From: Microcoleus sp. CAWBG506
GTDB taxonomy: Bacteria; Cyanobacteriota; Cyanobacteriia; Cyanobacteriales; Microcoleaceae
Reading direction: 5' to 3'
NCBI GenBank assembly: GCA_020883125.1
Contig: JAHREW010000029.1
Span: forward strand, 9,712 to 73,711
Length of the DNA: 64,000 nt
Shown here in pieces: positions 33,323 to 55,856 of the stretch. Each line of letters opens with the position of its first letter. Within the stretch, counting starts at the first letter, position 1. The notes under the pieces were generated by a model that saw only the letters and a list, made by a program, of their open reading frames with translations, had not been told where the DNA came from and made no database searches. Position numbers and translations under genes: made by a program.

Positions 33323-33355
33323 TTTCATCCTAATTTCATATCTCCGTGACAAACT
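33323..33355 (+). promoter_or_regulatory. CopR-type box 1 with -10, upstream of copM-like gene
   Basis: TTTCAT-cctaa-TTTCAT, 10 nt, then (TGA)CAAACT. Confidence 0.85.
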
Positions 33356-33389
33356 AAAGATTGACGGCAATTTTAAAAATATAAAATCT

Positions 33390-34097
33390 ATGAAACCAAT
33401 TTCATTAAAAACAGGATTGACAGCCATGATATTAACCTGCACAGCAGCTCTAAGCAGTGGAGTGCTGGCTGCTTGCTCCAAAGATCCTGTAAGTCAAACT
33501 CAAGCCCCAAATATTACAGCCGCCACCCCAGCCAGCAGCAAACAAGAGGTGGCGCAGGACCACAAAATGGGTGGCATGGATCACAGTATGTCCATGGATT
33601 TAGGGCCTGCTGATGGCGACTACGATTTGCGATTTATAGATGGGATGACAGTGCATCATCAAGGTGCTGTAAACATGGCGAAAGACGTTTTGAATAAATC
33701 CAAACGCCCGGAAATGAAAAAACTCGCAAATAACATGATTGTCGCTCAGAATCGTGAAATTAATCAAATGAAAGAGTGGCGAAAAAGTTGGTATCCTAAA
33801 GCCAGCAATACGCCTATGGCTTATCACGCTCCAATGGGTCACATGATGGCCATGACTCCCGAACAAATGCAAAGCATGATGATGAGCATGGATTTAGGTG
33901 CTGCTGACTCTCAGTTTGACCTGCGGTTTCTGAATGCGATGATTCCCCACCACGAAGGAGCTTTGGTGATGGCACAAGATGCTTTGAAAAAGTCGAAACG
34001 GTCAGAAATGAAGAAATTATCCCAAGAAATTCTGACTTCACAAAAGCAAGAAATTGAGCAAATGAAAGAGTGGCGCAAAGCGTGGTATAAACAGTAA
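33390..34097 (+). CDS. copM: DUF305 Met/His-rich copper-binding lipoprotein (CopM-like)
   Basis: Lipobox LAAC; two DLRF...M..HH.GA..MA repeats; Met-rich linker. Confidence 0.82.
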   Translation: MKPISLKTGLTAMILTCTAALSSGVLAACSKDPVSQTQAPNITAATPASSKQEVAQDHKMGGMDHSMSMDLGPADGDYDLRFIDGMTVHHQGAVNMAKDVLNKSKRPEMKKLANNMIVAQNREINQMKEWRKSWYPKASNTPMAYHAPMGHMMAMTPEQMQSMMMSMDLGAADSQFDLRFLNAMIPHHEGALVMAQDALKKSKRSEMKKLSQEILTSQKQEIEQMKEWRKAWYKQ

Positions 34098-34139
34098 TAA
34101 GTAGGTCAGCAAAAAAACAATAAGATCGAGTCGGGAATT

Positions 34140-34202
34140 GTAGGGGCGGGTTTTACAAACAATAATTGCCTCAAACAGATAATCTCGTAAACCCGCCCCT
34201 AC
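34140..34202. repeat. GTAG-type REP palindrome
   Basis: GTAGGGGCGGGTTT ... AAACCCGCCCCTAC. Confidence 0.8.
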
Positions 34203-34240
34203 CCAATGTTGTATTTATTTTTACCGACTTATTTACCATA

Positions 34241-34273
34241 TTTCATCCTGATTTCATTGCGAGCTGCAAAACT
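34241..34273 (+). promoter_or_regulatory. CopR-type box 2 with -10, upstream of the RND adaptor gene
   Basis: TTTCAT-cctga-TTTCAT, 10 nt, then (TGC)AAAACT. Confidence 0.85.
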
Positions 34274-34306
34274 GATCTTTTAGTTCATATTCGCCCCTAC
34301 TAAATC

Positions 34307-36250
34307 ATGCAATCTTGTCGCCGTTTCCACTCCCCAGCAGCGATATTTTATTCTTCGGGAATACTCCTGAGTCTTTTGTTATTCATTGATACCGTCGCTG
34401 TTTTCGCCCACGCGGGACACGGAGATGAATTTCACCAAAGTGGGGAAACAACTCAAATTCCGGCTGCTATTTCTGTCGATACTGAAACCTCGAAGCGCAT
34501 CGGAATCAAAGTTGAGCCGGTGAAATCTCAGCGGTTGTCTGTCGGGATTAAAACTACCGGACAAATTGAAACTCTGCCAAATCAAAAAGTAGAGGTTCGG
34601 GCTCCCGTTAGCGGCACTGTGGTTGAGTTGCTCGTTAAACCGGGGGACAAAGTATCAAAAGGTCAACCTGTGGTTGTGTTATCGAGTTCGGAATTAGGCC
34701 AATTGCGGGTGGAGTCGATCGCCAAACGAGCCGAAGCTGAAGGTGATTTGCAGCAGGCGCAGGCGGACTTTAAGTTAGCTCAACAAAATTACGATCGCCA
34801 ACTGCAAATATCCTCCGCAGAAATTGCCCAAGCCAAAAGCCAACTGACAGCAGCAACTCAGCAATACGAAAGAGAGCAAGAATTGGTAAACAACCGCTCT
34901 GTAGTGAAAGTTGCTCAAGAAAACTATCAGCGCCAACTACAAATAGCCCAGGCAGAAATAGCCCAGGCAGAAATCGAATTAACAGTGGCTAAAGAACAGT
35001 TTGAACGCGACAAAGAATTGGTAGCAGCAGGGGCAATTCCGCGACGGACAATGCTGGAATCGCAAGCTCATTTCGCCGAAGCCAAAGCCAATGTTGCCAA
35101 AGCAAAAAGCCGTCCCGAAGTTATCAAAGCCGAAACCGAAATTAAACAAGCCCAAGTAGACCTCCCGATGCGAGAATTGCGAGATGCTGAAGGCAAAGTT
35201 GCAGAAGTAAAAGCTCAACTTACCAAAGCTTTGAGTCGCCGGGAAGTTCTAGAAGCCGAGGCTCAACTCAAGCGGGCTAAAGCTGCTTTAGAAGTAGCTC
35301 AGTCCCGCGTTAGCCTCAGCAGTTCAGCCTATCAAGCACGGCTGCAACAATTAGGAACTGTTGCCAATGAACAAGGACTTGTGACTGTTATCGCTCCCAT
35401 TTCCGGCACTGTAGCCGATCGCGAAATCACCCCAGGCGAATCAGTCAACTCGGCGGAAAAACCCCTGATGAGCATATTAAATGACAGCAGCGTTTTTGCC
35501 ACAGCAAATATTTACGAAAAAGACCTAAATCAAGTAAAGCAGGGTCAGGAATTGACGGTAAAAATTGCTAGTTTGCCAAACCGCACTTTCCGGGGCAAAA
35601 TTAGCTTAATTGGCTCGACAGTAGAAGGGGAAACTCGCGCTGTGCCGGTGAAAGCTTTATTAGATAATTCTGAAGGAAGTTTGAAGCCAGGGATGTTTGC
35701 CGACTTGGAAATCTTAACCGACAAAACAGCAACAAATATTTTGGGAATTCCGGTTTCAGCAGTGGTAGAAGCCAACGGAAAGCAGTTAGTTTATGTCAAA
35801 AACGGCGATGTGTTTCAAGCTGTTGAAGCAGAACTAGGTCAAACTTCCGGGGATTTAGTGGAAATTAAGAGGGGTTTGTTTGAGGGAGATTTAATTGTCA
35901 CGCAGCGCGCACCTCAACTTTACGCCCAATCGTTGCGGGGCGGTAGCAAACACTCAAAAGTTGAGGAAAAGAAGGAAGTAACTCCCCAAGTTAAAGATGC
36001 CAATGTTAATAGTTTTCCGGTGCCTGTGTGGGCGGGAATAGGAGGAGGTATGGCGATCGCCTCTGTGACTTTTGCCGCGGGGGCTTTCTGGGGAAATCGG
36101 CGCAAATTGCCAGCAGTAGCAGCGGATTCTAAAAACAATGGTTTTTCCATCTCCGCAGCAGCACTAAATGCGATTACAGTAGATGAATTGTCGCAGGATG
36201 ACAACCACCGCGTTAAAAGTCAGGAGGCAGAAGCGAAGAGTTTAAAGTAA
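34307..36250 (+). CDS. Heavy-metal RND periplasmic adaptor (CusB/CzcB/CopB-like) with extended hairpin
   Basis: AHAGHGDEF N-terminus; lipoyl-like APVSGTV and APISGTV motifs; LKPGMFA; long coiled coil. Confidence 0.9.
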   Translation: MQSCRRFHSPAAIFYSSGILLSLLLFIDTVAVFAHAGHGDEFHQSGETTQIPAAISVDTETSKRIGIKVEPVKSQRLSVGIKTTGQIETLPNQKVEVRAPVSGTVVELLVKPGDKVSKGQPVVVLSSSELGQLRVESIAKRAEAEGDLQQAQADFKLAQQNYDRQLQISSAEIAQAKSQLTAATQQYEREQELVNNRSVVKVAQENYQRQLQIAQAEIAQAEIELTVAKEQFERDKELVAAGAIPRRTMLESQAHFAEAKANVAKAKSRPEVIKAETEIKQAQVDLPMRELRDAEGKVAEVKAQLTKALSRREVLEAEAQLKRAKAALEVAQSRVSLSSSAYQARLQQLGTVANEQGLVTVIAPISGTVADREITPGESVNSAEKPLMSILNDSSVFATANIYEKDLNQVKQGQELTVKIASLPNRTFRGKISLIGSTVEGETRAVPVKALLDNSEGSLKPGMFADLEILTDKTATNILGIPVSAVVEANGKQLVYVKNGDVFQAVEAELGQTSGDLVEIKRGLFEGDLIVTQRAPQLYAQSLRGGSKHSKVEEKKEVTPQVKDANVNSFPVPVWAGIGGGMAIASVTFAAGAFWGNRRKLPAVAADSKNNGFSISAAALNAITVDELSQDDNHRVKSQEAEAKSLK

Positions 36251-36327
36251 AAATTTTGTTTAATCTAGCAATTATAAATCGATGGCCGAACGGTCGTTGG
36301 TAGTCATCGCCTCTATAAAATCATAAA

Positions 36328-39300
36328 ATGTTCAGCACTATTCTCAGATGGGTAATTAACCGCCGCTGGCTAGTCGTTCTCGCCACGATTATTATTAGTC
36401 TTTGGACAGTATATATCATCCCCAAAATGCCCCTTGATGTCTTCCCGCCTTTCGCACCACCGCAGGTGGAAATCCAAACGGAAGCACCAGGTTTAGCGCC
36501 GGAAGAAATCGAGTCTTTGGTAACATTGCCGATCGAGAGTGCGATTAATGGAACTCCGGGGGTGACAGCAGTGCGATCTTCCTCTGCTGTGGGTATTTCT
36601 GTGGTTAAAGTTATCTTTGATTGGGGAACAGAAATTTATCAAGCACGCCAGTTGATTACAGAAAGGTTGCAGCAAGCTCAAAGCAAGCTTCCCGCAGGAG
36701 TAGAAGCACCGCAAATTTCTCCGACAACTTCTCCGGTAGGCACTGTGATTACCTATGCTTTTACATCAGAAACTACTTCTTTAATGGAAGTGCGCCGTCT
36801 GGTTGATTGGCAAGTTACCAATCGCCTATTAGCAGTGACTGGTGTTGCTCAAGTGGTAGCTTATGGCGGCGAACAAAGGCAGTATCAAGTATTAGTTACA
36901 CCTGCAAAATTGAAAGCTTTTAATGTTTCGTTGCAGCAAGTATCGGAAGCTGTAGCTGCTGCGAATGTTAACGCCCCCGGTGGCTATTTGATTACGCCGG
37001 ATAAAGAAACTTTGATTCGGGGTGTGGGGCGGATTGAATCGGTGGCAGATTTGCAGCAATCTGCGATCGCCTCTCGCCAAGGAATCGTCGTCAGAATTGG
37101 GGATGTAGCTGATGTCAAAATTGGTGCTGCTATCAAGCGGGGCGATGGCAGTTTTAACGGCAAAAAAGCTGTGATTGTGATGGTAAACAGACAGCCGATC
37201 GCTGATACTCCCACGGTAACTCAAGCTGTGGAAGCGGCAATGGCCCAGGTGCAGCAAGCTTTGCCCAAAGATATTAAAGTTACTGTTACTTTCCGCCAGG
37301 AAGAGTATATCAATTCTTCGGTGGAAAATGTGCGATCGGCTTTAGTGGAAGGCAGTATCATTGTCACGGTTATTCTGATCCCGTTTTTGATGAATTGGCG
37401 GACTCTGACGGTGGTTTTGCTCGATTTCTTCCTAACTTGGCTGTTCGGGCTGCTGGCGATGAATTGGCTGGGGCTGGGATTGAATACGATGACCTTGGGT
37501 GGGTTGTCGGTGGCGATCGGCACTGCGATCGACGATGCGATCGTCTATGCCGAAAATACCTACCGCAACTTGAGAGAAAACACGGCTTCTCATCATCCGC
37601 GCCCGGTGATGGATGTGATTTTTGATGGCAGTCAGGAGGTGCGAGATTCGTTAATTGGAGCGACTGTTATTGGCATTGTTGTGTTTTCGCCAATTTTTAC
37701 TTTGCCCGGTGTAGAAGGTCGAATTTTTACGCCGATGGGGATTACTTATCTGGTAGTTGTGGTGATTTCTAGTCTGGAATCGCTGTTAATATCTCCGGCA
37801 CTTTGCGCTATTTTGTTGCCTAACAAAAAGATGAGTGCTGAAGAACCTTGGTTGCCGAGATTCTGCAAAAAGATATATCACTTTTTTATAGAATTGTCAA
37901 TGCGCTATTCGGCGATTATTTTAACTTTAGCTGCTGCTAGTATGGTGGCGGCATTAATTATTTTGCCATCTTTTGGACGGGTGTTTTTGCCGGAGTTTCA
38001 GGAGCAAACTTTGGTGAATACTGTTCTACTTTATCCGGGCGTGTCTTTGGAAACGACGAATAGTGCGGCTTTTGCGATCGAAGATGCACTTAAGGATGAT
38101 ACCAGGTTTTCATACGTGCAAGTGCGATCGGGCAGAGCTCCCGGTGATGCTGATGCTGCGGGTGTCAATTTAGCTCACATTGATATCGGTTTGAGCGAGG
38201 AAGGAATGAAAAATCGGCAGAAAACTTTGGAATCATTGCGGCAGGAATTTGGGAAATTACCTGGAGTTGCACCAAATATCGGCGGTTTTATTTCTCACAG
38301 AATGGATGAGGTTTTATCCGGTGTCAGGAGTCAAATTGCTGTCAAAATCTTTGGCCCTGATTTGAATCAGCTTCGCACCATCGGCGCTCAAGTTGAAGCG
38401 CAAATGAAAACTGTTACAGGAATTGTAGACTTGCAACTGGAACCGCAAGTGCCGGTGCAGCAAATTCAAATTAAATTCAACCGCCAAGCTGCGGGTAGAT
38501 ATGGTTTGAAAGTGGGAGAACTTTCTGAAATAATTGAGACAGCTTTGAATGGGAAAGTTGTCTCTCAAGTTTTGGAATTGCAGCAAACTTTTGATTTAGT
38601 TGTCTGGTTGCAGCCTGAAGCCAGAAATAACTTAGAAACTATTCAGAATTTGTTGGTTGATACCCCCCCTCTTTCCCCCCCTTATAAAGGGGGGGATGAA
38701 ACCCCTCTTTATAAAGGGGGGGAAAGAGGGGGTAAAATTCCCCTCGGCCAAGTTGCTACTGTAAAATACGGTACGGGCCCAAATACGATTAATCGCGAGA
38801 ATGTTTCTCGGTTGATTGTGGCGGCGGCTAATGCGAAAGGTCGGGATTTGCGATCGGTGGTGAATGAAATTAAAGCTAAAGTTAAGCGAGAGGTACAGTT
38901 GCCTTTTGGCTATTTTATCCAATATGGTGGTCAATTTGAGGCCGAGCAAAGAGCTTCGCAAAATATTATGATGTTTAGTGCGATCGCCTTTGTGGTCATT
39001 ACAGTATTAATGTACTTATCCGTCAAGTCAATTCCTTCAACTGCGATGATTATGATCAATTTGCCGATCGGATTAGTGGGAGGTGTAATTTCGGTAGCTT
39101 TGACTGGCGGTATAATTTCCGTAGCTTCTTTAGTTGGCTTTGTCACTTTATTTGGCGTTGCTACTCGTAACGGCTTGTTATTAGTAGACAACTATAACAC
39201 TAAATTTGCCGAAGGAATGCCTTTTAAGGAAGCAATTATTAAAGGCTCGATGGAACGGCTCAATGCTATTTTGATGACGGCTTCAACTTCAGCTTTAGGT

Positions 39301-39510
39301 TTAGCACCTTTAGTCTTAGAAGGCGGCCCCGGAAAAGAAATTTTGCAACCGCTGTCAGTAGTAGTTTTAGGAGGATTGTTTACTTCTACAGCACTAACGC
39401 TGTTAGTTATGCCAGCTTTGTATGCTCAGTTTAGTAATTTTTTAAGACCTCAACAACCTCAGCCTGTTATTGAAGATGGTAAGGTAGTTAAAGCTGAGAT
39501 AGCGAACTAA
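36328..39510 (+). CDS. CusA/CzcA-family heavy-metal RND permease 1
   Basis: DVFPPFAPPQVEIQTEAPG; IDDAIVYAEN; ATRNG; RLNAILMT. Confidence 0.93.
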   Translation: MFSTILRWVINRRWLVVLATIIISLWTVYIIPKMPLDVFPPFAPPQVEIQTEAPGLAPEEIESLVTLPIESAINGTPGVTAVRSSSAVGISVVKVIFDWGTEIYQARQLITERLQQAQSKLPAGVEAPQISPTTSPVGTVITYAFTSETTSLMEVRRLVDWQVTNRLLAVTGVAQVVAYGGEQRQYQVLVTPAKLKAFNVSLQQVSEAVAAANVNAPGGYLITPDKETLIRGVGRIESVADLQQSAIASRQGIVVRIGDVADVKIGAAIKRGDGSFNGKKAVIVMVNRQPIADTPTVTQAVEAAMAQVQQALPKDIKVTVTFRQEEYINSSVENVRSALVEGSIIVTVILIPFLMNWRTLTVVLLDFFLTWLFGLLAMNWLGLGLNTMTLGGLSVAIGTAIDDAIVYAENTYRNLRENTASHHPRPVMDVIFDGSQEVRDSLIGATVIGIVVFSPIFTLPGVEGRIFTPMGITYLVVVVISSLESLLISPALCAILLPNKKMSAEEPWLPRFCKKIYHFFIELSMRYSAIILTLAAASMVAALIILPSFGRVFLPEFQEQTLVNTVLLYPGVSLETTNSAAFAIEDALKDDTRFSYVQVRSGRAPGDADAAGVNLAHIDIGLSEEGMKNRQKTLESLRQEFGKLPGVAPNIGGFISHRMDEVLSGVRSQIAVKIFGPDLNQLRTIGAQVEAQMKTVTGIVDLQLEPQVPVQQIQIKFNRQAAGRYGLKVGELSEIIETALNGKVVSQVLELQQTFDLVVWLQPEARNNLETIQNLLVDTPPLSPPYKGGDETPLYKGGERGGKIPLGQVATVKYGTGPNTINRENVSRLIVAAANAKGRDLRSVVNEIKAKVKREVQLPFGYFIQYGGQFEAEQRASQNIMMFSAIAFVVITVLMYLSVKSIPSTAMIMINLPIGLVGGVISVALTGGIISVASLVGFVTLFGVATRNGLLLVDNYNTKFAEGMPFKEAIIKGSMERLNAILMTASTSALGLAPLVLEGGPGKEILQPLSVVVLGGLFTSTALTLLVMPALYAQFSNFLRPQQPQPVIEDGKVVKAEIAN
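38661..38734. repeat. In-frame palindromic insertion in RND permease 1
   Basis: TACCCCCCCTCTTTCCCCCCCTTATA ... TATAAAGGGGGGGAAAGAGGGGGTA; absent at the same position in permease 2. Confidence 0.85.
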
Positions 39511-39516: not shown

Positions 39517-39954
39517 CTACTGAACTCCCTCAATCAAACTGCAAAGTTGCTCGCCATCTGGATTGTCTAAAGCTCGATTTGTCCAAAGTTTTTGATAAGC
39601 TTCCAACTCAGCTTTGAACGCACTCATGCGCTGAATTTCCTCCTCAACGAAATCAATTTTACGACTTAATAAGTCTTGCACCAGCGGACAAGCTGTTACT
39701 CCTTGATGGCGAGATACCAAAATTTGGTGAATTTCTTGAAGAGAAAAGTTGAGTCTTTGGGCTTTCTTGATAAATTGCACTTGTCTGGCGGCATCGGCTG
39801 TGTAGTAACGGTAGCCGCTACTGCTGCGTAAGGCAGGTTCCAGTAACCCTAAGCTTTCATAGTATCGCAGGGCGCCTACAGCAACACCAGTTTGTTTGGC
39901 TAGTTCTCCAATTTTTAGTAGATGTTCTAGGGATTCTGTTTCAAATTCTTTCAT
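39517..39954 (-). CDS. MerR-family heavy-metal-responsive regulator
   Basis: LKIGELAKQTGV..GALRYYESLGLL HTH; two Cys (TACP, QLCS). Confidence 0.9.
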   Translation of the reverse strand: MKEFETESLEHLLKIGELAKQTGVAVGALRYYESLGLLEPALRSSSGYRYYTADAARQVQFIKKAQRLNFSLQEIHQILVSRHQGVTACPLVQDLLSRKIDFVEEEIQRMSAFKAELEAYQKLWTNRALDNPDGEQLCSLIEGVQ

Positions 39955-40273: not shown

Positions 40274-40420
40274 TTATTTATCGCAATTAGCCAGCGGACA
40301 GTCAGGAGTAGGAGTAGTGCAAGGGCCAGCGGCAAAGACAACAGCGGCAGTACCTGCTGTCAGGAGAATTGCCGTCAAAGCTGCGAGAGTGAATCGTTTG
40401 GTCTGAGTTGTTTTAGTCAT
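40274..40420 (-). CDS. 48-aa secreted tri-cysteine peptide (below the ORF-track cutoff)
   Basis: Hand translation MTKTTQTKRFTLAALTAILLTAGTAAVVFA|AGPCTTPTPDCPLANCDK*; Sec-type signal; dedicated promoter about 55 nt upstream. Confidence 0.75.
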   Translation of the reverse strand: MTKTTQTKRFTLAALTAILLTAGTAAVVFAAGPCTTPTPDCPLANCDK

Positions 40421-40582: not shown

Positions 40583-40615
40583 TTTCATCGCGATTTCATT
40601 TTTGCGTGTCAACCT
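40583..40615 (+). promoter_or_regulatory. CopR-type box 3 with -10, upstream of RND permease 2
   Basis: TTTCAT-cgcga-TTTCAT, 10 nt, then (TGT)CAACCT. Confidence 0.82.
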
Positions 40616-40693: not shown

Positions 40694-43600
40694 ATGCTTA
40701 ATTCTATTGTCAAATGGTCGATCGCGCAACGGTGGCTAGTTGTCATCGCCTCCATCCTCATCACCCTTTGGGGATTGCGAGTTTTGACACAAATGCCGCT
40801 CGATGTTTTCCCCAGCTTTGCTCCCCCACAAGTCGAAATTCAAACCGAAGCACCGGGACTTGCTCCTGAAGAAGTCGAATCTCTAGTCACTCGACCCATA
40901 GAAAGTGCGATTAACGGCACTCCCGGAGTAGAAAAAGTACGCTCCTCTTCTGCTGTCGGCATTTCCGTCGTTAAAGTCATCTTTGGTTGGGATACCGAAA
41001 TTTACCGCGCTCGCCAGTTAGTAACAGAACGGTTGCAGCAAGCCCAAAATCTACTTCCTAAAGGCGTAGAAATCCCGCAAATTTCTCCCATCAGCTCTCC
41101 ACTGGGAGCCACCATTAAATATGCTTTCACTACAGATACCACACCTTTAATGGAAGTGCGGCGAATTGTGGACTGGCAAGTAAAAAATCGATTTTTAGCA
41201 GTTCCAGGTGTCACTCAAATTGTCATATTTGGCGGTGAAGAGCGCCAGTATCAAGTATTAGTAGAACCTAATAAGCTGAAACAATTTAATGTTTCATTGC
41301 AGCAAGTTACTGAAGCAGTTAAAAAAGCAAATGTCAATGCTCCGGGTGGATTTTTAATTAGCCCAGACCAAGAATTATTAATTCGGGGCGTGGGGCGAAT
41401 TGAGTCGATCGAGGATTTGAAACAATCTGCGATCGTAGCCAGAAATGGCACACCAGTGTTGCTGAGTCAAGTCGCTGACGTAAAAATCGGTGCAGCACTC
41501 CAACGCGGCGACAGCATCTTAAATGGCAAGAAAGCGATTATAGTCATCGTCAACAAACAGCCGGCTGCTGATACCCCAACCGTAACGAAGGCTGTTGAGG
41601 CCGCGATGGAGGAAATTAAACCAAGTTTACCTAAAGATGTCAAAGTTACTGTCACTTTCCGACAGGAAAATTTTATAGAAGCTTCTATCGAAAACGTGAG
41701 AGATGCTCTGCGGGATGGCATCATCATTGTGTCGATCGTACTAATCCTATTTTTAATGAACTGGCGCACCGTTATTATCAGCCTCAGCGCCCTTCCAGTG
41801 TCCTTGTTGCTGGGAATGATCGTTTTAGATTGGACAGGACAAGGCATCAACACGATGACCTTGGGAGGACTTGCTGTGGCGATCGGTTCAGTGGTAGATG
41901 ATGCGATCGTTGACATGGAAAATGTCTACCGTCGCTTGCGGGAAAACCAGCAAGCGGGAACACCAGTTCCGCCGCTAGATGTCGTGTTTAATGGCTCGGT
42001 TGAAGTGCGAGTCAGTGTATTATTTTCTACAGTAATTATTGCTGTAGTTTTTGCACCAATTTTCGCGCTCTCAGGCGTGGAAGGTCGCATTTTTACGCCG
42101 ATGGGGGTGTCCTATTTGCTATCAATTATCGCTTCAACATTGGTAGCGCTAACCTTGACTCCGGCACTATGTGCTATCCTATTAGTCGATCGCCGTTTGC
42201 CCCCAGATGAAACTTGGATTGCTCGCAAATCTCACCAATTATATCGCCCAGCTTTAATGTTTTCTATCCGCTTCCCTCAGATTGTTTTGGTAATAGCTGT
42301 TGTGGGCTTTGTAGCTTCGATGGTGATTTTACCTAGTTTGGGGCGAGTGTTTTTGCCGGAGTTTCAGGAACGCAGTTTGATTGTTGCTACTTCTCTCTAT
42401 CCTGGTGAGTCTTTAAATGCGACAAATCAAGTGGGTTTTGCGATTCAAGATGCTTTGAAAAATGACAATAATTTTGAAGCTTTAGCTTTGCGATCTGGAC
42501 GTGCTCCAGGTGATAGTGATGTCGGCGGTGTGAATTTTGGAGAAATGGATGTGGAGATTAGTTCACTGGGGGTGAAAAACCGGGAATCGACTATCGAAAA
42601 GCTGCGAAAGGAATATGCAAAAATACCCGGTGTTGCGGCTAATATTGGGGGGTTTATCTCGCATCGGATGGATGAGGTGCTATCGGGAGTCAGAAGTGCG
42701 ATCGCTGTTAAGATATTCGGGCCTGACTTGGAGCAATTAAGGGCGATCGGCAAACAAGTAGAAGCCACGATGACTGCAATTCCTGGCGTTGTAGACTTGC
42801 AATTAGAGCCGCAAGTCCCCATCAAACAGGTACAAATTAAATTCGATCGCACCGCCGCTGCTCGTTACGGTTTGGCGGTAGGCGACTTAGCAGAAGTCAT
42901 TGAAACTGCTCTCAACGGGCGAGTTGTTTCTCAAGTTTTAGAGCAACAGCAAGTGTTTGACTTGGTTGTCTGGCTCAATGAGCGCGATCGGCACAATCTA
43001 GATATTATCCGCAACTTATTAGTTGATACTCCCAGCGGACAGAAAATTCCCCTCGCACAAGTTGCCAAAGTTGACTACGGCACCGGCCCCAACACCCTCA
43101 ACCGCGAGAATGTATCCAGGCTCATTGTCGTCTCTGCTAACGTCCAAGGGCGAGATTTAGGTTCTGTCATCGCTGATATTCGCAGCCAAGTAAAACAAAA
43201 AGTGCAATTGCCATCGGGATATTACATTCAATACGGCGGTCAATTTCAGGCTCAAGAACAGGCAACTCAAACATTAATTGTAGCTGGCTTATTAGCCTTT
43301 GTCGTCATCACGGTACTGATTTACTTTGCCGTTAAAACAATTCCAGCTACCGCGATGATTATGATAAACTTACCCTTAGCATTAGTCGGAGGCGTGATTT
43401 CAGTCGCGCTAGGTGGCGGGATTATTTCAGTCGCCTCAATGGTAGGATTCATCACGTTATTCGGAGTAGCTACCCGCAACGGACTGTTGCTAGTTGATAA
43501 CTATAACAACAAGTTAGCAGATGGTATGCCTTTGCAGAAAGTCATCGTTGAGGGTTCTATGGAGCGGCTAGTCGCTATTTTGATGACTGCTCTCTCATCG

Positions 43601-43774: not shown

Positions 43775-43834
43775 AGTGAAAGTAAGACCGTTAATGCAAG
43801 TTATCATGGTTTAATTTTAACCATGATTTTCATT

Positions 43835-43938
43835 TCTTAGTCCGCGAAGGCGGACTTCATTTGTGTAGTTTGAGCTCGAATTCGTATGACGGGCGCTTCG
43901 CCACATACGAATTTTAGGTCAACAGGTTTCAACCGCCG
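43835..43938. repeat. REP-like element with a nested hairpin insertion
   Basis: Flanks match the reverse complement of 56874-56925, but 56 nt (AATTCGTATG...CATACGAATT hairpin) replace 4 nt. Confidence 0.65.
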
Positions 43939-43985
43939 AATTATCTTTCAACCTGAAGTAAACATTAATTTTTTTGGCACAAACC

Positions 43986-44663: not shown

Positions 44664-44707
44664 AAATCCATATTTTCACAAACAAATGATTAATATTCTC
44701 CTGACTT

Positions 44708-45985: not shown

Positions 45986-46113
45986 CTTGCTAATTTATTA
46001 ACAAATTTTCAATTAAACTAATCTTATTCTTGATTGCTTATAAACCTCACAAATCATTGACAAATTCTTTGATAAAGTGTAGATTATTTGAAGTTACTAA
46101 ATTTATATCAATT

Positions 46114-47737: not shown

Positions 47738-47763
47738 TTTTGCGATCGGGTTATCCTACTTTG

Positions 47764-47808
47764 GCGATTTCACTCTAGAGGATAAATGTCAAGAACTTGG
47801 AAAGATTG
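47764..47808 (-). promoter_or_regulatory. ATCTT-N6-TTCTT promoter motif, copy A
   Basis: caATCTTtccaagTTCTTgacatttatcctcTAGAGTgaaa. Confidence 0.7.
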
Positions 47809-47915
47809 ATTACGTTTGTGTTTACCAGGGGTAATGTGGCAATTGCAGCGTGAAACAACTGCCCACGCCTAGCTAAGTTGTCACAGTAAGAGTAATCCCA
47901 TGATTCGATCGCTAA

Positions 47916-48683
47916 TCAGTCTTGTTGGTCAATCGGCAGTGGGGCTAGTTTCTTCTGCTTAAGGCTTAAGTAAATAACCAGACTGACGATTATAGAAAGA
48001 AAAAGCATACTGGTTCCGATCGTACCAAAACCAAAACCACCATTTGTAGTAGGTTGTGACAATAAGTCGCCAGTAGATGCTCCCAGCGGACGAGTCAAGA
48101 TATAAGCTATCCAAAATGCCAAGACTGCATTCATTTTTAAGTAATAATAACCAGCGGCTACTATCCCAATTAAAACGCCAAATACTAATGCTGATTGTGC
48201 GTAACCCAGCTTCAAAGCCTCTGCTAGAAAATCTCCTGTTGACGTCCCCAAAGCAAACGTAAATAAGATAGCAGCCCAATAAAACAGCTCTCTTTTAGCT
48301 GTGTTGATGGAGTGCATAGCTAATGTCTTTTCGTTTGAATACCAAAGCCCAAAAATTACCAACAAAACAACACTAAAAACTATATTAATTGTCATAAAAT
48401 TAACACCCAGATTGTCTACCAATCTATCGGTAATTAGTGTACCAGTGATACTCATCAAAACGACTACAATCCAGTAACTCGCTGGCACATACCGTTTCAG
48501 CCTAAACTGATTCAAAAGCCCCATCAGTAACACAGCGCTCATCACATAGGATGTAACGCTTAAACCAAATTTCAGGTTTACTGACAGATAATCAGCCAGA
48601 GTTTCACCTACTGTGGTTGCCAGAACCTTAATAATCCAGAAAGAACCTGTAACCTCTGGAACCCTGTTTAGTATCTTGTTCAT
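47916..48683 (-). CDS. COG4705/DUF347-repeat membrane protein, paralog A
   Basis: RVPEVTGSFWIIKVLATTVGETLAD; FWIAYILTRPLGASTGD. Confidence 0.85.
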   Translation of the reverse strand: MNKILNRVPEVTGSFWIIKVLATTVGETLADYLSVNLKFGLSVTSYVMSAVLLMGLLNQFRLKRYVPASYWIVVVLMSITGTLITDRLVDNLGVNFMTINIVFSVVLLVIFGLWYSNEKTLAMHSINTAKRELFYWAAILFTFALGTSTGDFLAEALKLGYAQSALVFGVLIGIVAAGYYYLKMNAVLAFWIAYILTRPLGASTGDLLSQPTTNGGFGFGTIGTSMLFLSIIVSLVIYLSLKQKKLAPLPIDQQD

Positions 48684-48809
48684 AATATTTCTCCTTTGGG
48701 TCGATCGTTGAGTGTTCTAGATTTGGGATATTTCTCCAACTAAGGGCTGGCACTCATAGCACCGCCCCTACTCTATTTGTTGCCTAAAGAAAGCGAATTT
48801 GTTCGAGAT

Positions 48810-49307
48810 TTACTTCTTGGCATCATCATTAGTTTCTCCATCCCCATCGCCGGCAGCAGCCTCGGAAGTTTGAATGCTGCTGCGGGGAGAAATACTTTCC
48901 TTATCCTCAGCTTTTAGGCTTTGTGTCTGGAGGATTTTACCGTTACCAGCATCTACACTTATTTTTTGTTTACCGATACTGACTGAGTATACAACGTTGC
49001 CGTCTTCGTTTTCTAATTTGACAGTATTTGCGGTGCCACCTTTAGCAGCTTCTGCTGCGGAGCGTGCCTGTTCGGGCGTAATTTTAGCTAGAGATTGTAG
49101 GTGACTTGATTCTTGCTTTTCTTTCGCATCATCATTCGTTTCGCCATCGCCATCACTGGCTTCAGGTAATGATTTGGCGTTTTGGCGATCGGACATTACG
49201 GCAACCTGAGATTGCGCTGGCGAAGCGTACACAGTTCGGACTAATCCACCCAGCCCTAAAGTACCGACTAAAACAGTGGCTAGAGCGATTTTGGTTGAGG
49301 TTTTCAT
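48810..49307 (-). CDS. Secreted PepSY-domain protein with two acidic DGDGETNDDAK motifs
   Basis: Signal peptide; ITPEQARSAAE...VKLENEDGNVVYSV...VDAGNGKIL PepSY pattern. Confidence 0.85.
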   Translation of the reverse strand: MKTSTKIALATVLVGTLGLGGLVRTVYASPAQSQVAVMSDRQNAKSLPEASDGDGETNDDAKEKQESSHLQSLAKITPEQARSAAEAAKGGTANTVKLENEDGNVVYSVSIGKQKISVDAGNGKILQTQSLKAEDKESISPRSSIQTSEAAAGDGDGETNDDAKK

Positions 49308-49521: not shown

Positions 49522-49554
49522 TTTCATGCTAATTTCATTCTTTGGTGTGATATT
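49522..49554 (+). promoter_or_regulatory. CopR-type box 4 with -10
   Basis: TTTCAT-gctaa-TTTCAT, 10 nt, then (TGT)GATATT. Confidence 0.82.
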
Positions 49555-49585: not shown

Positions 49586-50089
49586 ATGAAAACGCTCAAA
49601 TCAAGTTTAGTTATTCTAGCCAGTGTCGGATTGCTGTTTTTGGGAGCTTGCAGTAAAGGCGACCAAGGAAGCGATGCAAATAGCAGCCCAACAGCCCCTT
49701 CTGTCGCCTCTAAACCTGCGTCTTCAGCTCCAAGTTCTGCCCCTATGGCAGCGGATAAAATGGCTCATCCTCAAGCATCTAAAGGCGGTCAAGTTGTCGA
49801 ATCTGGAGCTTACCACTTAGAGTTTGTTGCTGAAAAAGAAGCTACCGGAACTCACTTAGATTTTTATTTACAAAAAGGCGACAAACACGAACCAGTCCCC
49901 AACGCAAAAGTGTCAGCTCAAGTGCAGTTACCGAGTGGAAAACAGCAAACCCTAGCCCTGAAATATGACCCTGCTGGCAAACATTATACTGTTGTATTTC
50001 CAGTCAAAGATGCAGGAAACTATCCTGTGAAAATGAATGCGGATATTAACGGAGAAAAAGTTGACGGTCGTTTTACCTTTAAGCAATAG
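49586..50089 (+). CDS. Lipoprotein with a His-containing beta-rich domain, function unknown
   Basis: Lipobox LGAC; GGQVVESGAYHLEF; start moved to ATG 49586 because ATG 49526 lies inside the operator. Confidence 0.8.
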   Translation: MKTLKSSLVILASVGLLFLGACSKGDQGSDANSSPTAPSVASKPASSAPSSAPMAADKMAHPQASKGGQVVESGAYHLEFVAEKEATGTHLDFYLQKGDKHEPVPNAKVSAQVQLPSGKQQTLALKYDPAGKHYTVVFPVKDAGNYPVKMNADINGEKVDGRFTFKQ

Positions 50090-50250: not shown

Positions 50251-50283
50251 TTTCATTCGGATTTCATCCCTGAAAGTCAAGCT
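50251..50283 (+). promoter_or_regulatory. CopR-type box 5 with -10
   Basis: TTTCAT-tcgga-TTTCAT, 10 nt, then CAAGCT. Confidence 0.8.
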
Positions 50284-50328: not shown

Positions 50329-50799
50329 ATGAAAAAGTTAATTTACGCTGCTGTATTCACATTTGTGCTGGCATCTAATGCCCCCGCTACTGTTGCAGGA
50401 GGAGCCATGCAAAATGCGAATATTCCTCACCTTATCCACAGCGGTGCCCATCCGAATAAAGCTCGATTTCAGGGTGCTACCCATCATTTTGAAGTTCACG
50501 TTCAGGGAAAGGCTCTTTCGGCACTGGTAATTGATTTGCCCGATGATGTGAAAATGCGTAGCGGCATTGAGATAACAAATCAATCTGGTCAAAAAATAGA
50601 GTCTCAAGTTTCTGTTAATAACCGAAAAGCGACTGTGGTTTTCTCCCAACCTGTTTCTCCTGACACCACTATATCAATTGATCTGCTGGGAATTCGGACT
50701 CCTAGTTACAGTCGGAATTGGATGTACACGATATCTGGTAAAATGGTGGGAATAAATGCAGAAATACCACTTGGTACAGTTTTAATTCAAACCTACTAA
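50329..50799 (+). CDS. Secreted DUF2808-like protein
   Basis: Signal peptide; PHLIHSGAHP; VVFSQPVSPDTTISIDL...RTP; family call from recall. Confidence 0.7.
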   Translation: MKKLIYAAVFTFVLASNAPATVAGGAMQNANIPHLIHSGAHPNKARFQGATHHFEVHVQGKALSALVIDLPDDVKMRSGIEITNQSGQKIESQVSVNNRKATVVFSQPVSPDTTISIDLLGIRTPSYSRNWMYTISGKMVGINAEIPLGTVLIQTY

Positions 50800-50889: not shown

Positions 50890-50927
50890 AGTTATTGTTG
50901 CATTGAACCCTGAAAGTAAGGTGCGTC

Positions 50928-52400
50928 TCAAATTGCCTCCTGCATTTCTACTAATCTGCTAGTTTCAAGACGCTGTTGTCTGATTGGTAGCGAAATTACA
51001 AATTCCGTACCTTCTCCAAGTCCCGAAAGGCACTCCAAGCAGCCGCAGTGCTTTTCTCGAACAATTTGGCTGCTAATTGATAACCCTAAACCCGTTCCTT
51101 TACCGGCGGGTTTTGTGGTAAAAAAGTGGTTAAATATTTTATCTTTGACTTCTTCAGTCATTCCAGGGCCGTTATCAGAAATGCGGATGACTGCCCGATC
51201 GCCTTCCGCGACTTCTGTGCTAATCTGAATCGTGAGCAAGTTTTTCTGAACACCCGCAACTGACGAATTAGAACTGTCTCGCAAAACATCAATGGCATTA
51301 CTGATAATGTTCATGAATACCTGATTTAGTTGCCCTGCATAACATTCAACCAGCGGTAAATCGTCGTATTCTTTAATCAGTTGGATAGCAGGGCTTTTGC
51401 CATTTGCTTTCAGTCGGTGCTGAAGGATTAGCAGGGTACTGTCGATTCCTTCGTGAATGGAAGCAAAATTCATACCGTCTGTGTCTAAACGCGAAAAATT
51501 TCGCATCGACGAAACAATCACGCAGATTCTGTCAGTTCCCACCTTCATTGAAGAGAGAAGTTTTGGCAAGTCTTCGCTTAAAAAATCGAGTTCTACTGTC
51601 TCAATTTCCTCTTGAATTTCTTCTACGGGATTAGGATAATATTTGGCATATAAATTGACTAGCCCTAACAAATCTCTAACATAATTGCGCGCATAGGAAA
51701 TATTCGCATCAATAAAGTTAATCGGATTGTTGATTTCGTGGGCAATTCCTGCTGTCAGTTCTCCCAAAGCGGATAACTTTTCGGTATGTACTAATTGAGC
51801 TTGGGTTTGCTGAAGTTGTTGCAAAGCTCGTTCTAGTTGTTCGGCTTTTTCTCTCAATTGAGACTCGGATTATTGCAGTGCTTTTTTGGCTTTTTTCCGC
51901 TCTAGAACTTCTTTAATTAAAGAATCATTTGCTTTGGAAAGTTTTGCAGTTCTGGCGTTGACTCGCTGTTCCAATACTTCTGCTAGTTCAGCGAGCGCCA
52001 CCTCGGCTTTCCGGCGTTCTCCAATTTCATTTTCTAATGCTAAGTTGGCTGCTTCTAGCTTGGCAGGACTGGGAAGAGCCAGTGCAAAAGGCATCAAGGT
52101 TAATAGCAACAAAACTGAACTTCCGGCTACGAAAGCTGTAATGGCTTTCATAAACTCTGACACTAAAGATTCAGGAAACCAAACATACCATGTTTCTATG
52201 ACGTGGGTTGTCCCACAGGTGACGAAGAATGCTCCAAATACCAGGAACATCCACTGAAAGGGGATATCTCGCCCTTTGTAAAGGGCATAAACTAGCATTG
52301 TGGGAATTAAATAATAGGAAACTACGATCATAATTTTCAGCCAGTTCCAATTAGGCATTCCAGAGTTGACTAAAACCGAAGCTATTGCTAAGCCAATCAT
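50928..52400 (-). pseudogene. Ethylene-receptor-like membrane domain histidine kinase split by one in-frame TAA (51872-51870)
   Basis: ORFs 51870..52400 and 50928..51857 are in the same frame (KKALQ*SESQLREKAEQ); YYLIP and CGTTH in the TM part; AHEINNP, DNGPG and GKGTGLGL in the kinase. Confidence 0.8.
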
Positions 52401-52487
52401 AAAAATCCTTGATGTTAATCGGGTCAGTTTTCACTAATTCTACTCGATTAGATAAATGCACCCTCTATTTCGATCGCACTTTATTTC

Positions 52488-53432
52488 CTATTTCGTTGCT
52501 TCAGTCTTTTTGAATGGGAAAAAGACTCGACCTGCCAGACTTTGGAAGTAGATGCCACCCACAGTACCTAAAAATACGAAGTAAGAAAGCGCCTGCACAA
52601 CATAGAGCTTATCTGTGTATCCAAACAGCGCACTCAACAACAAACCTGGAAATTGTTCTTTTGGCAGCACTTTCGAGGCATCCCAGACCATCGGCCCCAG
52701 AATGCAAGAGTGGACTTTGGCAAAATTTTCGTAATAGAAACACAGCCCTGCTGACTCGCGATTTGCTTGGGATAAAGTATTGAACACCGTGTCAAAAAGT
52801 CCCAAAGTAGATACCACTAAACCCGCTACAATAAACAGCAATAAAATGCCCATATATTTGAAAAACAGGCGGATATTAATTTTGACTCCCCATTTAAACA
52901 ACAGGGCACCAAGTCCGGCGGCTGAGAGTATCCCGCCCAAAGCGCCGAGTGCCGGAATAATCCCTTCTTGAAACTTGGCAACGACAAACAAAACCGTTTC
53001 AAATCCTTCGCGTAAAACGGCAATCAAAACTAAGCTAAATACGCCCCAACCGGCATGAGAATTTTGGGTTAAAGCGGCACTGACAGCGCCTTCGACTTCG
53101 GCTTTCATAAATCGCGCTTGTTTGGTCATCCAAATCAGCATCCAGCTCAGCATTGCGATCGCGACAAGCCCAAAAGTTGCCTCTAGCAGCGCCTCCATAA
53201 TCGGTGCGAAAGGCTGATTTGATGTGGATAAAAGTTGAATAGTCCAGCCGAAAAGTACACCGATGAAAGCACTGGCGAGCAGTCCAACGGCAACACCGCC
53301 GAAAACCCAAGGACTTAAATAACTTTGACCGGATTTTTTGAGGCAAGCTAGAACAATTCCGACAACTAAGGCAGCTTCAACTCCTTCGCGGAGGGTAATT
53401 ACAAATGTGGGCAATGCTTCGCCAATATTCAT
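52488..53432 (-). CDS. FTR1/EfeU-family iron permease
   Basis: Two RExxE motifs (LREGVEA, LREGFET); multiple TM helices. Confidence 0.92.
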   Translation of the reverse strand: MNIGEALPTFVITLREGVEAALVVGIVLACLKKSGQSYLSPWVFGGVAVGLLASAFIGVLFGWTIQLLSTSNQPFAPIMEALLEATFGLVAIAMLSWMLIWMTKQARFMKAEVEGAVSAALTQNSHAGWGVFSLVLIAVLREGFETVLFVVAKFQEGIIPALGALGGILSAAGLGALLFKWGVKINIRLFFKYMGILLLFIVAGLVVSTLGLFDTVFNTLSQANRESAGLCFYYENFAKVHSCILGPMVWDASKVLPKEQFPGLLLSALFGYTDKLYVVQALSYFVFLGTVGGIYFQSLAGRVFFPFKKTEATK

Positions 53433-53515
53433 CTTTTTGTTGTGGTAATGGGACTGGTTAATGAGGAGGTAATTGGCAGATTATTTACCAATTACCGTTG
53501 ATTTGATTGATTTTT

Positions 53516-54547
53516 TTAAGATGCGGGTTTGAGAACTTTTTGGCTGTCGGTTTCGATTGTTTTAATTAGCTTGGTAATTTGTTCGGTGGTTTTTACAGGG
53601 GCGGCTGGTGCGATCGCAGTTGGCCAATTTGTCTTAAGTTCTGTCATGTTGGCAACAATTGCTTTGTCAGTTGCAGGGCTATCTTTAGCTAGTTGAGCGG
53701 CAATATCTTTGTACAGCATTTCTGCATAGGTAACAAAACCCCGCGAATCTTGATATTCAATAATTGCGGAAATTTTGCCGTTGGCAACTGCCGCTCCGTA
53801 TTCAGAATTAGCTGTATCTAGCAAGCCGTTAATCACTTGCAGCACGAATTTTGGATCTTTTCGCTGCGGTTCGGAAACGGCGGCAATTGAGCCATCTACT
53901 GCTTGCATTGATGTGGTGAATTCTGCATTTACTTGAGCCGGATCTTTTGCTCCTGCTTTAACTAAATCTTGCAATTTAACTAAAGTAGTCTTGAATTCGG
54001 GAATTTTACGCTCTTTTAGCTGGTCTTCCACATCGGCATAAATTTCTTCGACTGGATGCCCGATGTGAGGTTCTGCCTGGTCTGGTTTGCCTTGATCCAA
54101 GAGTTCTTTTGCTACGAAAAGATGCCCTTTCATCAAGCCCATTTTAGTCATGAAGTCTACATCTTTGGCTTCGCCTGTGAGTACGACATCCTCGATAGTT
54201 ACCATGTCTTTGATTTGGTCGAATTGGGGTTGAGTAATCACCTTTTTTGAGACCAATTCTTCTACTTTTCCGAAGGGGCGGCTGGCTTGAATTTTGTTAG
54301 AAAGTGCCGGCACTCCTAACTTGCCTTCGATTTTGTCCAAGTCGGAGAGCAAGGCTGTATTAATGTTGATTGCGCCCTTGGCAGCGTGGTTCATGCTGTG
54401 ACCGCTTGTTGCTGCGGAGCTAGCTGTGGCTGTCGGTGAGGCTGTACTCTCGGTGTTGCTGGCTGTCGGGGTGGAACCGCAACCGGCCAGAGCAAGGAGG
54501 ATTGCTGTAGCAGTGGCTGTCGGTAATAAGCGAAAAGTTGATGACAT
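53516..54547 (-). CDS. Lipoprotein with HhH-like and helical His-containing domains (FTR1 partner)
   Basis: Lipobox LAGC; ININTA HhH-like start; MKGHL, HIGHPVEE and EYQDSRGF motifs; start may be 54577. Confidence 0.75.
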   Translation of the reverse strand: MSSTFRLLPTATATAILLALAGCGSTPTASNTESTASPTATASSAATSGHSMNHAAKGAININTALLSDLDKIEGKLGVPALSNKIQASRPFGKVEELVSKKVITQPQFDQIKDMVTIEDVVLTGEAKDVDFMTKMGLMKGHLFVAKELLDQGKPDQAEPHIGHPVEEIYADVEDQLKERKIPEFKTTLVKLQDLVKAGAKDPAQVNAEFTTSMQAVDGSIAAVSEPQRKDPKFVLQVINGLLDTANSEYGAAVANGKISAIIEYQDSRGFVTYAEMLYKDIAAQLAKDSPATDKAIVANMTELKTNWPTAIAPAAPVKTTEQITKLIKTIETDSQKVLKPAS

Positions 54548-54592
54548 GGCAGTTGCTAATTGTGACGTTATGTGCATTTGGACTTACAAGCT

Positions 54593-54620
54593 AATAAGAA
54601 ATATTCTCAATTATTTGCAA
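54593..54620. promoter_or_regulatory. Fur-like box upstream of the lipoprotein
   Basis: AATAAGAAATATTCTCAAT (7-1-7-like) overlapping ATTCTCAATTATTTGCAA. Confidence 0.5.
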
Positions 54621-54711
54621 GATATTTATTGTGCCTATTTGCGATCGAATTTGGTAGATGATTTAATACTTTTTTCAGTATAATTGGCGCACCCTGGTAG
54701 CAGAATTTGGG

Positions 54712-55716
54712 TTAAGTGATGACTTCAAATATACCCATGCAGCCGGCTTCGGCGATCGCATCTTGATGAGGATGAAACATATATTTTCCGCCGTACCCGT
54801 AGGTAAATTCTAAAATATGTCTTTCAGCTACTCCCATTGTGATGACATCGGCTTTTTCACTCGGAGTTAAAGTCATTCCCGTGCGATATACGTCAAAAAA
54901 GTTGCCGTGCAAGTGAAAAGTCACTGCTGCTTCGTACTCAATCATGTTGAGAACATACAGCCGAACTAGCTGATTTTTGTAGATAGAAATAGGATTATTC
55001 ATGTAATAATGTGGCAACCCGTTAAAAGCGTAAAGCTCGTTCTTTTCGTCATCGTTTACGTCATATCCTCCCATGATTAAGACCAGTTCATCTGCACTCG
55101 GACGGGGTTTTAGCGGATCGATGATGAACATACCATAGAGTCCTTTACCAATATGCCTAGTTACAGGAGCAATATGGCAGTGATATAGATGCACTCCGTA
55201 GGGAGCGGCATCGAATTCATAAATGAATACCGAACCGCTTCTCACTGGTTTAATGCCATCCATTTCGCTAGTATGAAAACCGTGAAAGTGCAGGGAGTGA
55301 GAATGTCCAGCTTTGTTAGAGAAAATGACGCGGATGCGATCGCCCTCCGTGGCCCTTAATGTCGGCCCCGGCACGCGATTATTCACGTTCCAGGTGTTGA
55401 AAGTGACGGCACTGTTAAGCTGAACGAGCGAAGTGTTAGCTTCCATGCGAAATTCTCGAATCGTGCGTCCATTTTCGCGCGTCACCGTGCCATAATCAAA
55501 ATCCCGCACAATTTGCATCGGGCTGATATTGCTGACGGTGACAGCATCAGCGGGCATTGGTGGTATTCTCGCGGCTGCTGGTCGTTTTTGAGTCAAGTTT
55601 TGAAGTGCGATCGCGCCTCCCGCTACCCCAGCACCAGCTATACCTAACTGTAGGAGTTGACGGCGACTCCAGCGCCCAGCCTTTTTCATGGCGGGACGAT
55701 CGGATAAGTCTGTCAT
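54712..55716 (-). CDS. Tat-exported two-domain multicopper oxidase
   Basis: SRRQLL Tat motif; HSLHFHG, HCH....H...L in domain 1; HLHG and HPH in domain 2. Confidence 0.88.
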   Translation of the reverse strand: MTDLSDRPAMKKAGRWSRRQLLQLGIAGAGVAGGAIALQNLTQKRPAAARIPPMPADAVTVSNISPMQIVRDFDYGTVTRENGRTIREFRMEANTSLVQLNSAVTFNTWNVNNRVPGPTLRATEGDRIRVIFSNKAGHSHSLHFHGFHTSEMDGIKPVRSGSVFIYEFDAAPYGVHLYHCHIAPVTRHIGKGLYGMFIIDPLKPRPSADELVLIMGGYDVNDDEKNELYAFNGLPHYYMNNPISIYKNQLVRLYVLNMIEYEAAVTFHLHGNFFDVYRTGMTLTPSEKADVITMGVAERHILEFTYGYGGKYMFHPHQDAIAEAGCMGIFEVIT

Positions 55717-55720
55717 AATT

Positions 55721-55739
55721 ATTGAAAAACTTTCTCAAA
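55721..55739. promoter_or_regulatory. Fur-like box immediately upstream of the oxidase ATG
   Basis: TTGAAAAA-C-TTTCTCAA inverted repeat. Confidence 0.5.
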
Positions 55740-55823
55740 TATTTACTCGCATTTAATTATACGACCTTACTAGCTTGTTGTCAATTATTATCAACTGCTA
55801 TCTTTTTCTGGTAAGTCATAAAA

Positions 55824-55856
55824 TTTCATGCTGATTTCATCTAAGTATGCGAGCTT
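55824..55856 (+). promoter_or_regulatory. CopR-type box 6 (autoregulatory) with -10
   Basis: TTTCAT-gctga-TTTCAT, 10 nt, then (TGC)GAGCTT. Confidence 0.8.

Follow-up and report, generated by a model that had tools for sequence, protein, structure and literature searches.

The stretch of DNA analysed here (the window) is 64,000 nt of Microcoleus sp. CAWBG506 (contig JAHREW010000029.1, positions 9,712 to 73,711), in which a 22-kb metal-resistance region carries six copies of the direct repeat TTTCAT-N5-TTTCAT (the box), each at a fixed distance from a −10 element. These are very probably six activator-dependent promoters of one metal-resistance regulon of the CopRS type, as judged from sequence comparison. 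The assignment to a CopRS regulon with PhoB-like promoter geometry is well supported and represents a known mechanism rather than a new one. The main lead is a pan-cyanobacterial link between the box and genes encoding DUF2808 proteins.

The exact box was found six times in the 64-kb window, at 33323, 34241, 40583, 49522, 50251 and 55824, always on the + strand. A first-pass annotation had described these sites, with spacers ending in RA and a −10 element exactly 10 nt after the box, TGn-extended in five cases, and all of this was confirmed: the spacers end in RA in 6/6 sites, nAnnnT is found 10 nt past the box at each, and only site 5 is without the TG. An A also stands before every half-site in all six boxes, so that the repeat unit is ATTTCAT with an 11-bp period. 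The sites are as follows.

33323-33355, + strand: site 1; box 33323-33339, 10-nt gap, −10 CAAACT at 33350-33355 (TGa), predicted start ~33362
34241-34273, + strand: site 2; box 34241-34257, −10 AAAACT at 34268-34273 (TGc), predicted start ~34280
40583-40615, + strand: site 3; box 40583-40599, −10 CAACCT at 40610-40615 (TGt), predicted start ~40622
49522-49554, + strand: site 4; box 49522-49538, −10 GATATT at 49549-49554 (TGt), predicted start ~49561
50251-50283, + strand: site 5; box 50251-50267, −10 CAAGCT at 50278-50283 (no TG), predicted start ~50290
55824-55856, + strand: site 6, putative autoregulatory promoter; box 55824-55840, −10 GAGCTT at 55851-55856 (TGc), predicted start ~55863

Because the motif is AT-rich and turns up singly many times in very large databases, the six could in principle be chance matches, or copies of a dispersed repeat with no regulatory role. 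Dinucleotide-preserving shuffles gave an expectation of 0.04 boxes per window, and six were reached in 0/100 shuffles; the motif being common at random positions, a possibility that the first-pass annotation had raised, is therefore not what was observed. Based on our own arithmetic from the window base composition, nAnnnT at a fixed offset has a probability of ~0.077, giving ~2e-7 for six of six, and TG at five of six sites has a chance of ~6e-6. By our estimate, 7 Mb of genome would hold ~4-5 boxes by chance, and fewer than one with the correct geometry. The six sites are also non-random in strand, in position and in their −10 geometry. Sequences flanking the six promoters are only 27-31% identical to each other, which is the random level, and the promoters are therefore not duplicated DNA. 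As boxes are, in addition, kept ahead of orthologous genes and absent at control genes (see below), chance or a dispersed repeat was rejected as vanishingly improbable. A search of the window with one mismatch allowed produced only two extra matches: 28362 (−), which is antisense within an open reading frame (ORF), and 56992 (−), in the start codon region of a kinase gene (ATGAAAAATGAATCAAA), which is kept also in Oscillatoria PCC 7112 and is conserved for coding reasons. A weight matrix trained on 148 related sites scored the six sites at 36-56 bits, and the next best window position at −4.4.

No sigma-70-type −35/−10 pair was detected at any of the six sites, and the −10 elements are weak and mostly TGn-extended (cAa.cT). 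With transcription starting ~7 nt after the −10, the box would span about −39 to −23. Four units have predicted leaders of 25-39 nt; that of copA2 would be 72 nt long and that of the regulator gene 224 nt. An Rfam scan of 30000-62000 produced no match. The E. coli pho box consists of two 7-bp direct repeats with an 11-bp period, located 10 bp upstream of the −10, where it replaces the −35. The window promoters share with it a 7 + 4 bp unit present twice, direct repeats one helical turn (11 bp) apart, the 10-nt gap to the −10 and the lack of a detectable −35, and the regulators belong to the same family; PhoB differs in its half-site (CTGTCAT versus ATTTCAT here), its signal and its kinase. A proteobacterial Pho-type array (TTTCATGACAC, repeated) also matched the search pattern (locus L106).

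A + strand gene follows each box, as had been claimed, once two start codons were mended: the true ATG of copA2 (site 3) is at 40694 (MLNSI...), not 40619, and copC (site 4) starts at 49586 with a lipoprotein signal, not at the listed ORF start of 49526. The genes are listed below.

33390-34097, + strand: copM, behind site 1 (DUF305; NCBIfam CopM equivalog domain at 129.7 bits, cutoff 90); predicted leader ~28 nt
34307-39510, + strand: copB (RND adaptor, 34307-36250) and copA1 (CusA/CzcA-type heavy-metal RND pump, 36328-39510), behind site 2
40694-43774, + strand: copA2, behind site 3; a further RND pump of the CopA type that lacks its own adaptor gene
49586-50089, + strand: copC homologue, behind site 4; a lipoprotein (MKTLKSS...LGAC)
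50329-50799, + strand: gene for a DUF2808 protein, behind site 5
56087-56776, + strand: copR, behind site 6; an RppA/CopR-family OmpR-type response regulator and the proposed reader of the box
56999-58330, + strand: copS, an RppB-family sensor kinase

CopA2 shares 65% identity with CopA1 and 68% with Synechocystis CopA, to which CopA1 is 61% identical, and the site 4 protein is 52% identical to Synechocystis CopC (slr6044; E 7e-39). Three of the promoters had been thought to serve genes outside the canonical set. This is now reduced to one, because the site 3 gene is a second copA and the site 4 gene a copC homologue; the claim stands for the DUF2808 gene, which is the only target outside the published CopR set.

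Conservation was examined by a regulator-based scan with one genome per species, which gave 80 loci (1.36 Mb), all from Microcoleus or other Oscillatoriales and at 78-94% identity. Of the 154 exact boxes in these loci, 151 share the strand of rppA, nAnnnT stands at +10 in 153 and TGn is present in 130; their −10 and spacer sequences are highly varied. The rppA promoter footprint is biased, as the loci were picked by the exact box, and a gene-first test was used instead, in which genes were located first and a box of their own was then sought within 400 nt upstream. An own box was present for 21/21 adaptor (copB) genes and 6/6 copM genes (in each set one is a 1-mismatch box), for 32/40 DUF2808 genes (the remainder being in tandem behind another DUF2808 gene), for 48/75 rppA genes (the remainder being directly behind DUF2808 or copC) and for 21/42 RND pumps. 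The control genes had none: copS (0/80), htpG (0/56), multicopper oxidase (0/46), merR (0/8), PAP2 (0/7), DUF347 (0/7) and PepSY (0/5). Autoregulation of copR through site 6 is a supported prediction. The window order of PepSY (−), box-copC, box-DUF2808, multicopper oxidase (−) and box-copRS is seen again in several genomes (L034, L059 and L067). The copC homologue is separate from copBA in the window; in most related loci it lies directly behind the RND gene copA. Metatranscriptome contigs of relatives show expression, without resolution of 5' ends.

The box with the same geometry was also found on ten annotated plasmids from at least six cyanobacterial orders (hosts Synechocystis, Oscillatoria, Nostoc PCC 7120, Anabaena cylindrica, Calothrix, Gloeocapsa, Chondrocystis, Chroococcidiopsis, Leptolyngbya and Acaryochloris). 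There it precedes rppA, copM and adaptor genes and, most often, genes for DUF2808 proteins; in some places the gene behind it encodes a P-type ATPase, multicopper oxidase, porin or cysteine synthase.

Some boxes in other genomes have further neighbours. In some Microcoleus genomes (L011 and L028) a box precedes a gene for a Cys-rich protein of 109-125 aa (MSEHQH...CATECEKCADFC...), and other boxes in related loci precede a 351-aa membrane protein or Met/His-rich secreted proteins of 304-310 aa. A 9.1-kb metagenome contig (L155) has five boxes of correct geometry, and its boxed genes encode a probable multicopper oxidase (530 aa, with a Tat signal), a P-type ATPase rich in His and two secreted proteins, of 485 and 117 aa. 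This contig appears to carry a differently composed regulon with the same promoter grammar.

The first-pass annotation had proposed that one two-component system, with the 56087 protein as its regulator, controls all six promoters. The choice of regulator is upheld by its equivalog score and by the identity of its recognition helix to that of Synechocystis CopR, but the region holds two OmpR-type two-component systems, 56087/56999 and 43974/44708, which were told apart by recognition helix and sensor domain. The second is as follows.

43974-46797, + strand: RR1 (43974-44663), HK1 (44708-45985) and a PAP2 phosphatase (46030-46797); regulon membership doubtful

The 56087 protein scores 406 bits on the NCBIfam RppA equivalog (cutoff 250) and the 56999 kinase 703 on RppB (cutoff 400). 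On plasmid pSYSX, the genuine Synechocystis CopRS likewise bear the rppA/rppB names in the Prokaryotic Genome Annotation Pipeline (PGAP). With Synechocystis CopR (slr6040) the 56087 protein shares 65% identity, and the recognition helix (SNVVAAQVRLLRRKL) is the same in both and near-identical throughout the RppA family. The 56999 sensor domain shares 48-62% identity with cop-linked paralogues and 39-40% with nrs-like ones, and is without the nrs-like His-rich insertion. Based on the equivalog scores, the pSYSX names, the helix identity and the CopS-like sensor, this pair was named copRS and is taken as the putative box reader; of the two pairs it is the only one that is CopR/CopS-like. RR1 is also an OmpR-family regulator within the region and reaches 234 bits on the RppA model, and could be supposed to read the box, alone or with the 56087 protein. 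Its score is nevertheless under the cutoff of 250 (the RR1/HK1 pair falls under both the RppA and the RppB cutoffs), it is 44% identical to CopR, its recognition helix (EGTVKTHITNLRSKL) differs at most positions, the sensor domain of its kinase is 19% identical to that of CopS, and it is missing from most related loci that retain boxes. A role for RR1 as reader was consequently rejected as highly improbable.

A different connection between the two systems would be a cascade, with the site 3 transcript covering copA2 together with RR1-HK1-PAP2, such that CopR turns on the second two-component system. The genes are all co-oriented, only 200 nt separate copA2 from RR1, and no consensus promoter was found in this gap. 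The cascade is still considered unlikely, as two terminator-like hairpins are present behind copA2 (43803-43856), one of them a dispersed repeat that occurs in many loci in both orientations; the copA2-type pumps of relatives precede a box and copC, RR1 having other upstream neighbours there; and in no locus does a box lie ahead of RR1, HK1 or PAP2. Site 3 therefore probably does not drive the second system. Due to the hairpins, the non-conserved junction and the absence of a box at these genes in any locus, RR1-HK1-PAP2 is most likely a separate transcription unit that would read a different DNA site. Between the PAP2 gene and site 4 are genes for two DUF347 membrane proteins and a PepSY protein (46982-49307, − strand), a block kept beside RR1-HK1-PAP2 in loci L034 and L058, and this block may be the real target of the RR1-HK1 system.

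The closest known system is the CopRS regulon of Synechocystis PCC 6803. On pSYSX, PcopM reads TTTCATCCTGATTTCAT, then tttgctttgc, then CAGACT (TGc), and PcopB reads TTTCATCTTGGTTTCAT, then attcctgtga, then AACACT (TGa). Half-sites, 5-nt spacer, 10-nt gap and TGn-extended nAnnnT −10 are thus the same as in the window, and the earlier identification of the box as a CopR box is borne out. Both Synechocystis promoters are described as bound by CopR (PMC4284471), and the putative CopR site is given as TTCAT-N4-5-TTCAT (PMC4182526). The published start of Synechocystis copM is 26 nt before the start codon (PMC4890671), and the geometry predicts one at 27-28 nt, at most 2 nt away. The window shares with Synechocystis the direct repeat, its fixed position, the effector families CopM, CopB, CopA and CopC and a cognate CopR/CopS pair, predicted here to be autoregulated as it is there. 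The systems differ in their extent, as the published Synechocystis regulon consists of copMRS and copBAC only (PMC4182526), with two promoters versus the six of the window; copM, copC and copRS each have their own promoter here but lie within those two operons in Synechocystis, and the window adds a second copA paralogue, without an adaptor gene, and the DUF2808 gene.

The proteobacterial CusRS/CopRS systems likewise place an OmpR-type regulator and a periplasm-sensing kinase over a CusA-type RND pump. In proteobacteria the copper box is a palindrome of the ATTCAT type rather than a direct repeat of this kind, and the effector set differs, that of the window including CopM and the DUF2808 protein. 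The window regulator scores 186 bits on the cztR_silR_copR subfamily, under its cutoff of 279.

In the proposed mechanism, CopS (56999-58330) would sense an excess of periplasmic or lumenal metal, most likely copper, and phosphorylate CopR (56087-56776). A head-to-tail CopR dimer on the direct repeat would then replace the −35 element and recruit RNA polymerase, as PhoB does at the pho box. The predicted outputs are CopM (a periplasmic copper-binding protein), CopB-CopA1 and CopA2 (RND efflux), the lipoprotein CopC and the secreted DUF2808 protein, and a further output would be copRS itself, giving positive feedback.

Three observations weigh against a single copper-responsive regulon read through this box. 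Firstly, lone matches to the composite motif are mostly chance: no cop-type gene was present in 105/120 metagenome loci among the matches listed, although clustered metagenome sites among them coincide with cop, DUF2808 and RppA genes. A single box match is therefore not diagnostic, whereas clustering and context are. Secondly, the 224-nt copR leader is interrupted by a repeat insertion. Thirdly, nrs-like (nickel/cobalt) paralogues of Gloeocapsa and Acaryochloris have the same recognition helix as CopR, so that metal specificity and the exclusivity of CopR at the six sites are tentative. Other RppA-family paralogues with this helix occur in relatives (L004), and as such paralogues may be present elsewhere in the genome, control by a single system is likewise tentative. 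On the grounds of homology and gene content, copper is the likely signal; the boxed Anabaena copM homologue all7594 is copper-induced (PMC4335983), with its box 260 nt upstream (L083:11123).

The shared helix leads to the suggestion that the box is common to several RppA-family regulators, so that the six promoters are also bound by at least one paralogue encoded in another part of the genome, such as a nickel sensor of the NrsR type, and the regulon answers to other or additional metals. The Synechocystis nickel system NrsRS (RppA/RppB, sll0797/sll0798) has the same NCBIfam equivalog names, and TTCAT repeats are present in the nrs promoters, in the nrsRS-nrsBACD intergenic region (PMC4182526). 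In some relatives two rppAB pairs lie side by side, and boxed DUF2808 genes accompany each of them (L004); PcopM gives a weak response to Zn, Cd and Ni (PMC4890671). The window, in contrast, holds a single RppA-family regulator, its kinase groups with cop-linked sensors, lacks the nrs-type sensor insertion and is less similar to nrs-like sensors, and no divergent nrsBACD-like (adaptor-RND) operon was found beside 56087. The Synechocystis nrs and mntC genes that bear TTCAT repeats are, moreover, not CopR-dependent (PMC4182526). The boxes by nrs-like paralogues read TTTCAy-CTGAT-TTTCAT in three cases (L084:35167, L085:26815 (−) and L089:14051); two of these need an 11-nt gap to the −10, and the third precedes genes for a CsoR/RcnR-type regulator and an MFS transporter. 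Neither the CTGAT spacer nor the 11-nt gap is seen at any of the six window sites. Such features may serve to distinguish copper from nickel paralogues that have the same helix, although three cases prove nothing. Taken together, a box shared with other regulators seems rather unlikely, and copper-responsive CopRS remains the favoured reader of the six sites.

The site 5 protein matches DUF2808 (PF10989) at 36.6 bits (gathering score 25.3). All 103 homologues found are cyanobacterial, with several plasmid-borne, and boxed DUF2808 genes occur in six or more cyanobacterial orders, for which no published description was found. One histidine, H52, never varies, and two others, H34 and H57, rarely do. 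In the structure model, which is a confident one (mean pLDDT 83.5, and >90 over most of the mature domain) a signal peptide is followed by a predicted nine-strand Ig-like beta-sandwich. A fold search with it returned only generic Ig-like sandwiches at a TM-score of ~0.55, and a PDB sequence search gave no match. The Bacillus copper-binding protein YcnI is among the fold matches, but was not accepted as a sign of copper binding, as the similarity is at the fold level only. No publication that connects DUF2808 with CopRS or with copper was found in a literature search. The Nostoc PCC 7120 DUF2808 protein All7597 is an exoprotein (PMC10957091) that rises under cadmium (bioRxiv 10.1101/2022.09.23.509143). 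We tentatively suggest, as an idea that is plausible rather than probable, that DUF2808 proteins are a hitherto unrecognised group of metal-handling proteins, secreted or periplasmic, and, besides autoregulation, the most widely conserved CopR/RppA-type output in cyanobacteria; paralogous copper and nickel systems would then be kept apart by the spacer and the 10- or 11-nt distance from box to −10, not by the half-site.

This provides a precise and testable grammar for the promoters of copper-responsive genes in cyanobacteria: ATTTCAT-N4-ATTTCAT, 10 nt, TGn-nAnnnT. With it, CopR/RppA regulons could be annotated in any cyanobacterial genome and metal-inducible promoters designed. The finding also suggests that the two-operon model from Synechocystis understates the regulon in filamentous, mat-forming cyanobacteria, and would give the cyanobacteria-restricted DUF2808 family its first functional context, as a secreted output of metal stress.

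The repeat in the copR leader is as follows.

55896-56038, + strand: perfect tandem array of a 22-nt unit x 6.5 (TACAATAGGGGAGCCGTGTCCC) within the copR leader

The array is flanked by near-duplicates of GATCGCCAACAATGTATA (55880-55897 and 56043-56060), and each unit contains a TACAAT hexamer resembling a −10. It is absent from 80/80 related loci, where box-to-ATG is ~99 nt versus 263 here, and it is a lineage-specific insertion. The copR-copS intergenic region (56777-56998) is a chain of small GC-rich hairpins (e.g. AGTCCGCctgcGCGGACT), and metatranscriptome contigs stack up over this region, with depths in the thousands and loose ends from many contexts. A variant follows copA2 (43839-43856) and recurs in many related loci in both orientations, and these hairpins look like dispersed palindromes of the repetitive extragenic palindrome (REP) type.

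A heavy-metal P-type ATPase (HMA domain) and a cupredoxin-like protein (30178-32964, − strand) are encoded divergently from copM and have no box; one is located ahead of the ATPase gene in some relatives (L052) and in Gloeocapsa. A 48-aa ORF (40274-40420, − strand) adjoining a MerR-family regulator gene (39517-39954) has an N-terminus that resembles a signal and a tail rich in Cys (GPCTTPTPDCPLANC); if the ORF call holds, it may encode a small secreted metal-binding peptide. At 50928-52400 (− strand) a 176-aa protein with an ethylene-receptor-like, copper-binding membrane domain (ETR1_N) is followed by a separate 309-aa histidine kinase core, and the two may be a split or frameshifted sensor kinase.

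Encoded in the same direction at 52488-55716 (− strand) are a 334-aa multicopper oxidase, a protein with an HHH motif and an iron permease (FTR1), which resemble a ferroxidase/permease iron-uptake pair more than a copper-resistance oxidase. No CopR box was found on the multicopper oxidase strand, here or in 46 relatives. The promoter of this divergent operon (55784-55756, − strand) is a perfect 12/12 sigma-70 consensus (TTGACA, 17 nt, TATAAT), and is located 40 nt from site 6. Between copS and htpG (58413-58643) are two further short tandem arrays, a 14-nt unit (AGTCATTAGTCAGC) x 6.7 and a 7-nt unit (ACTACTG) x 10.4.

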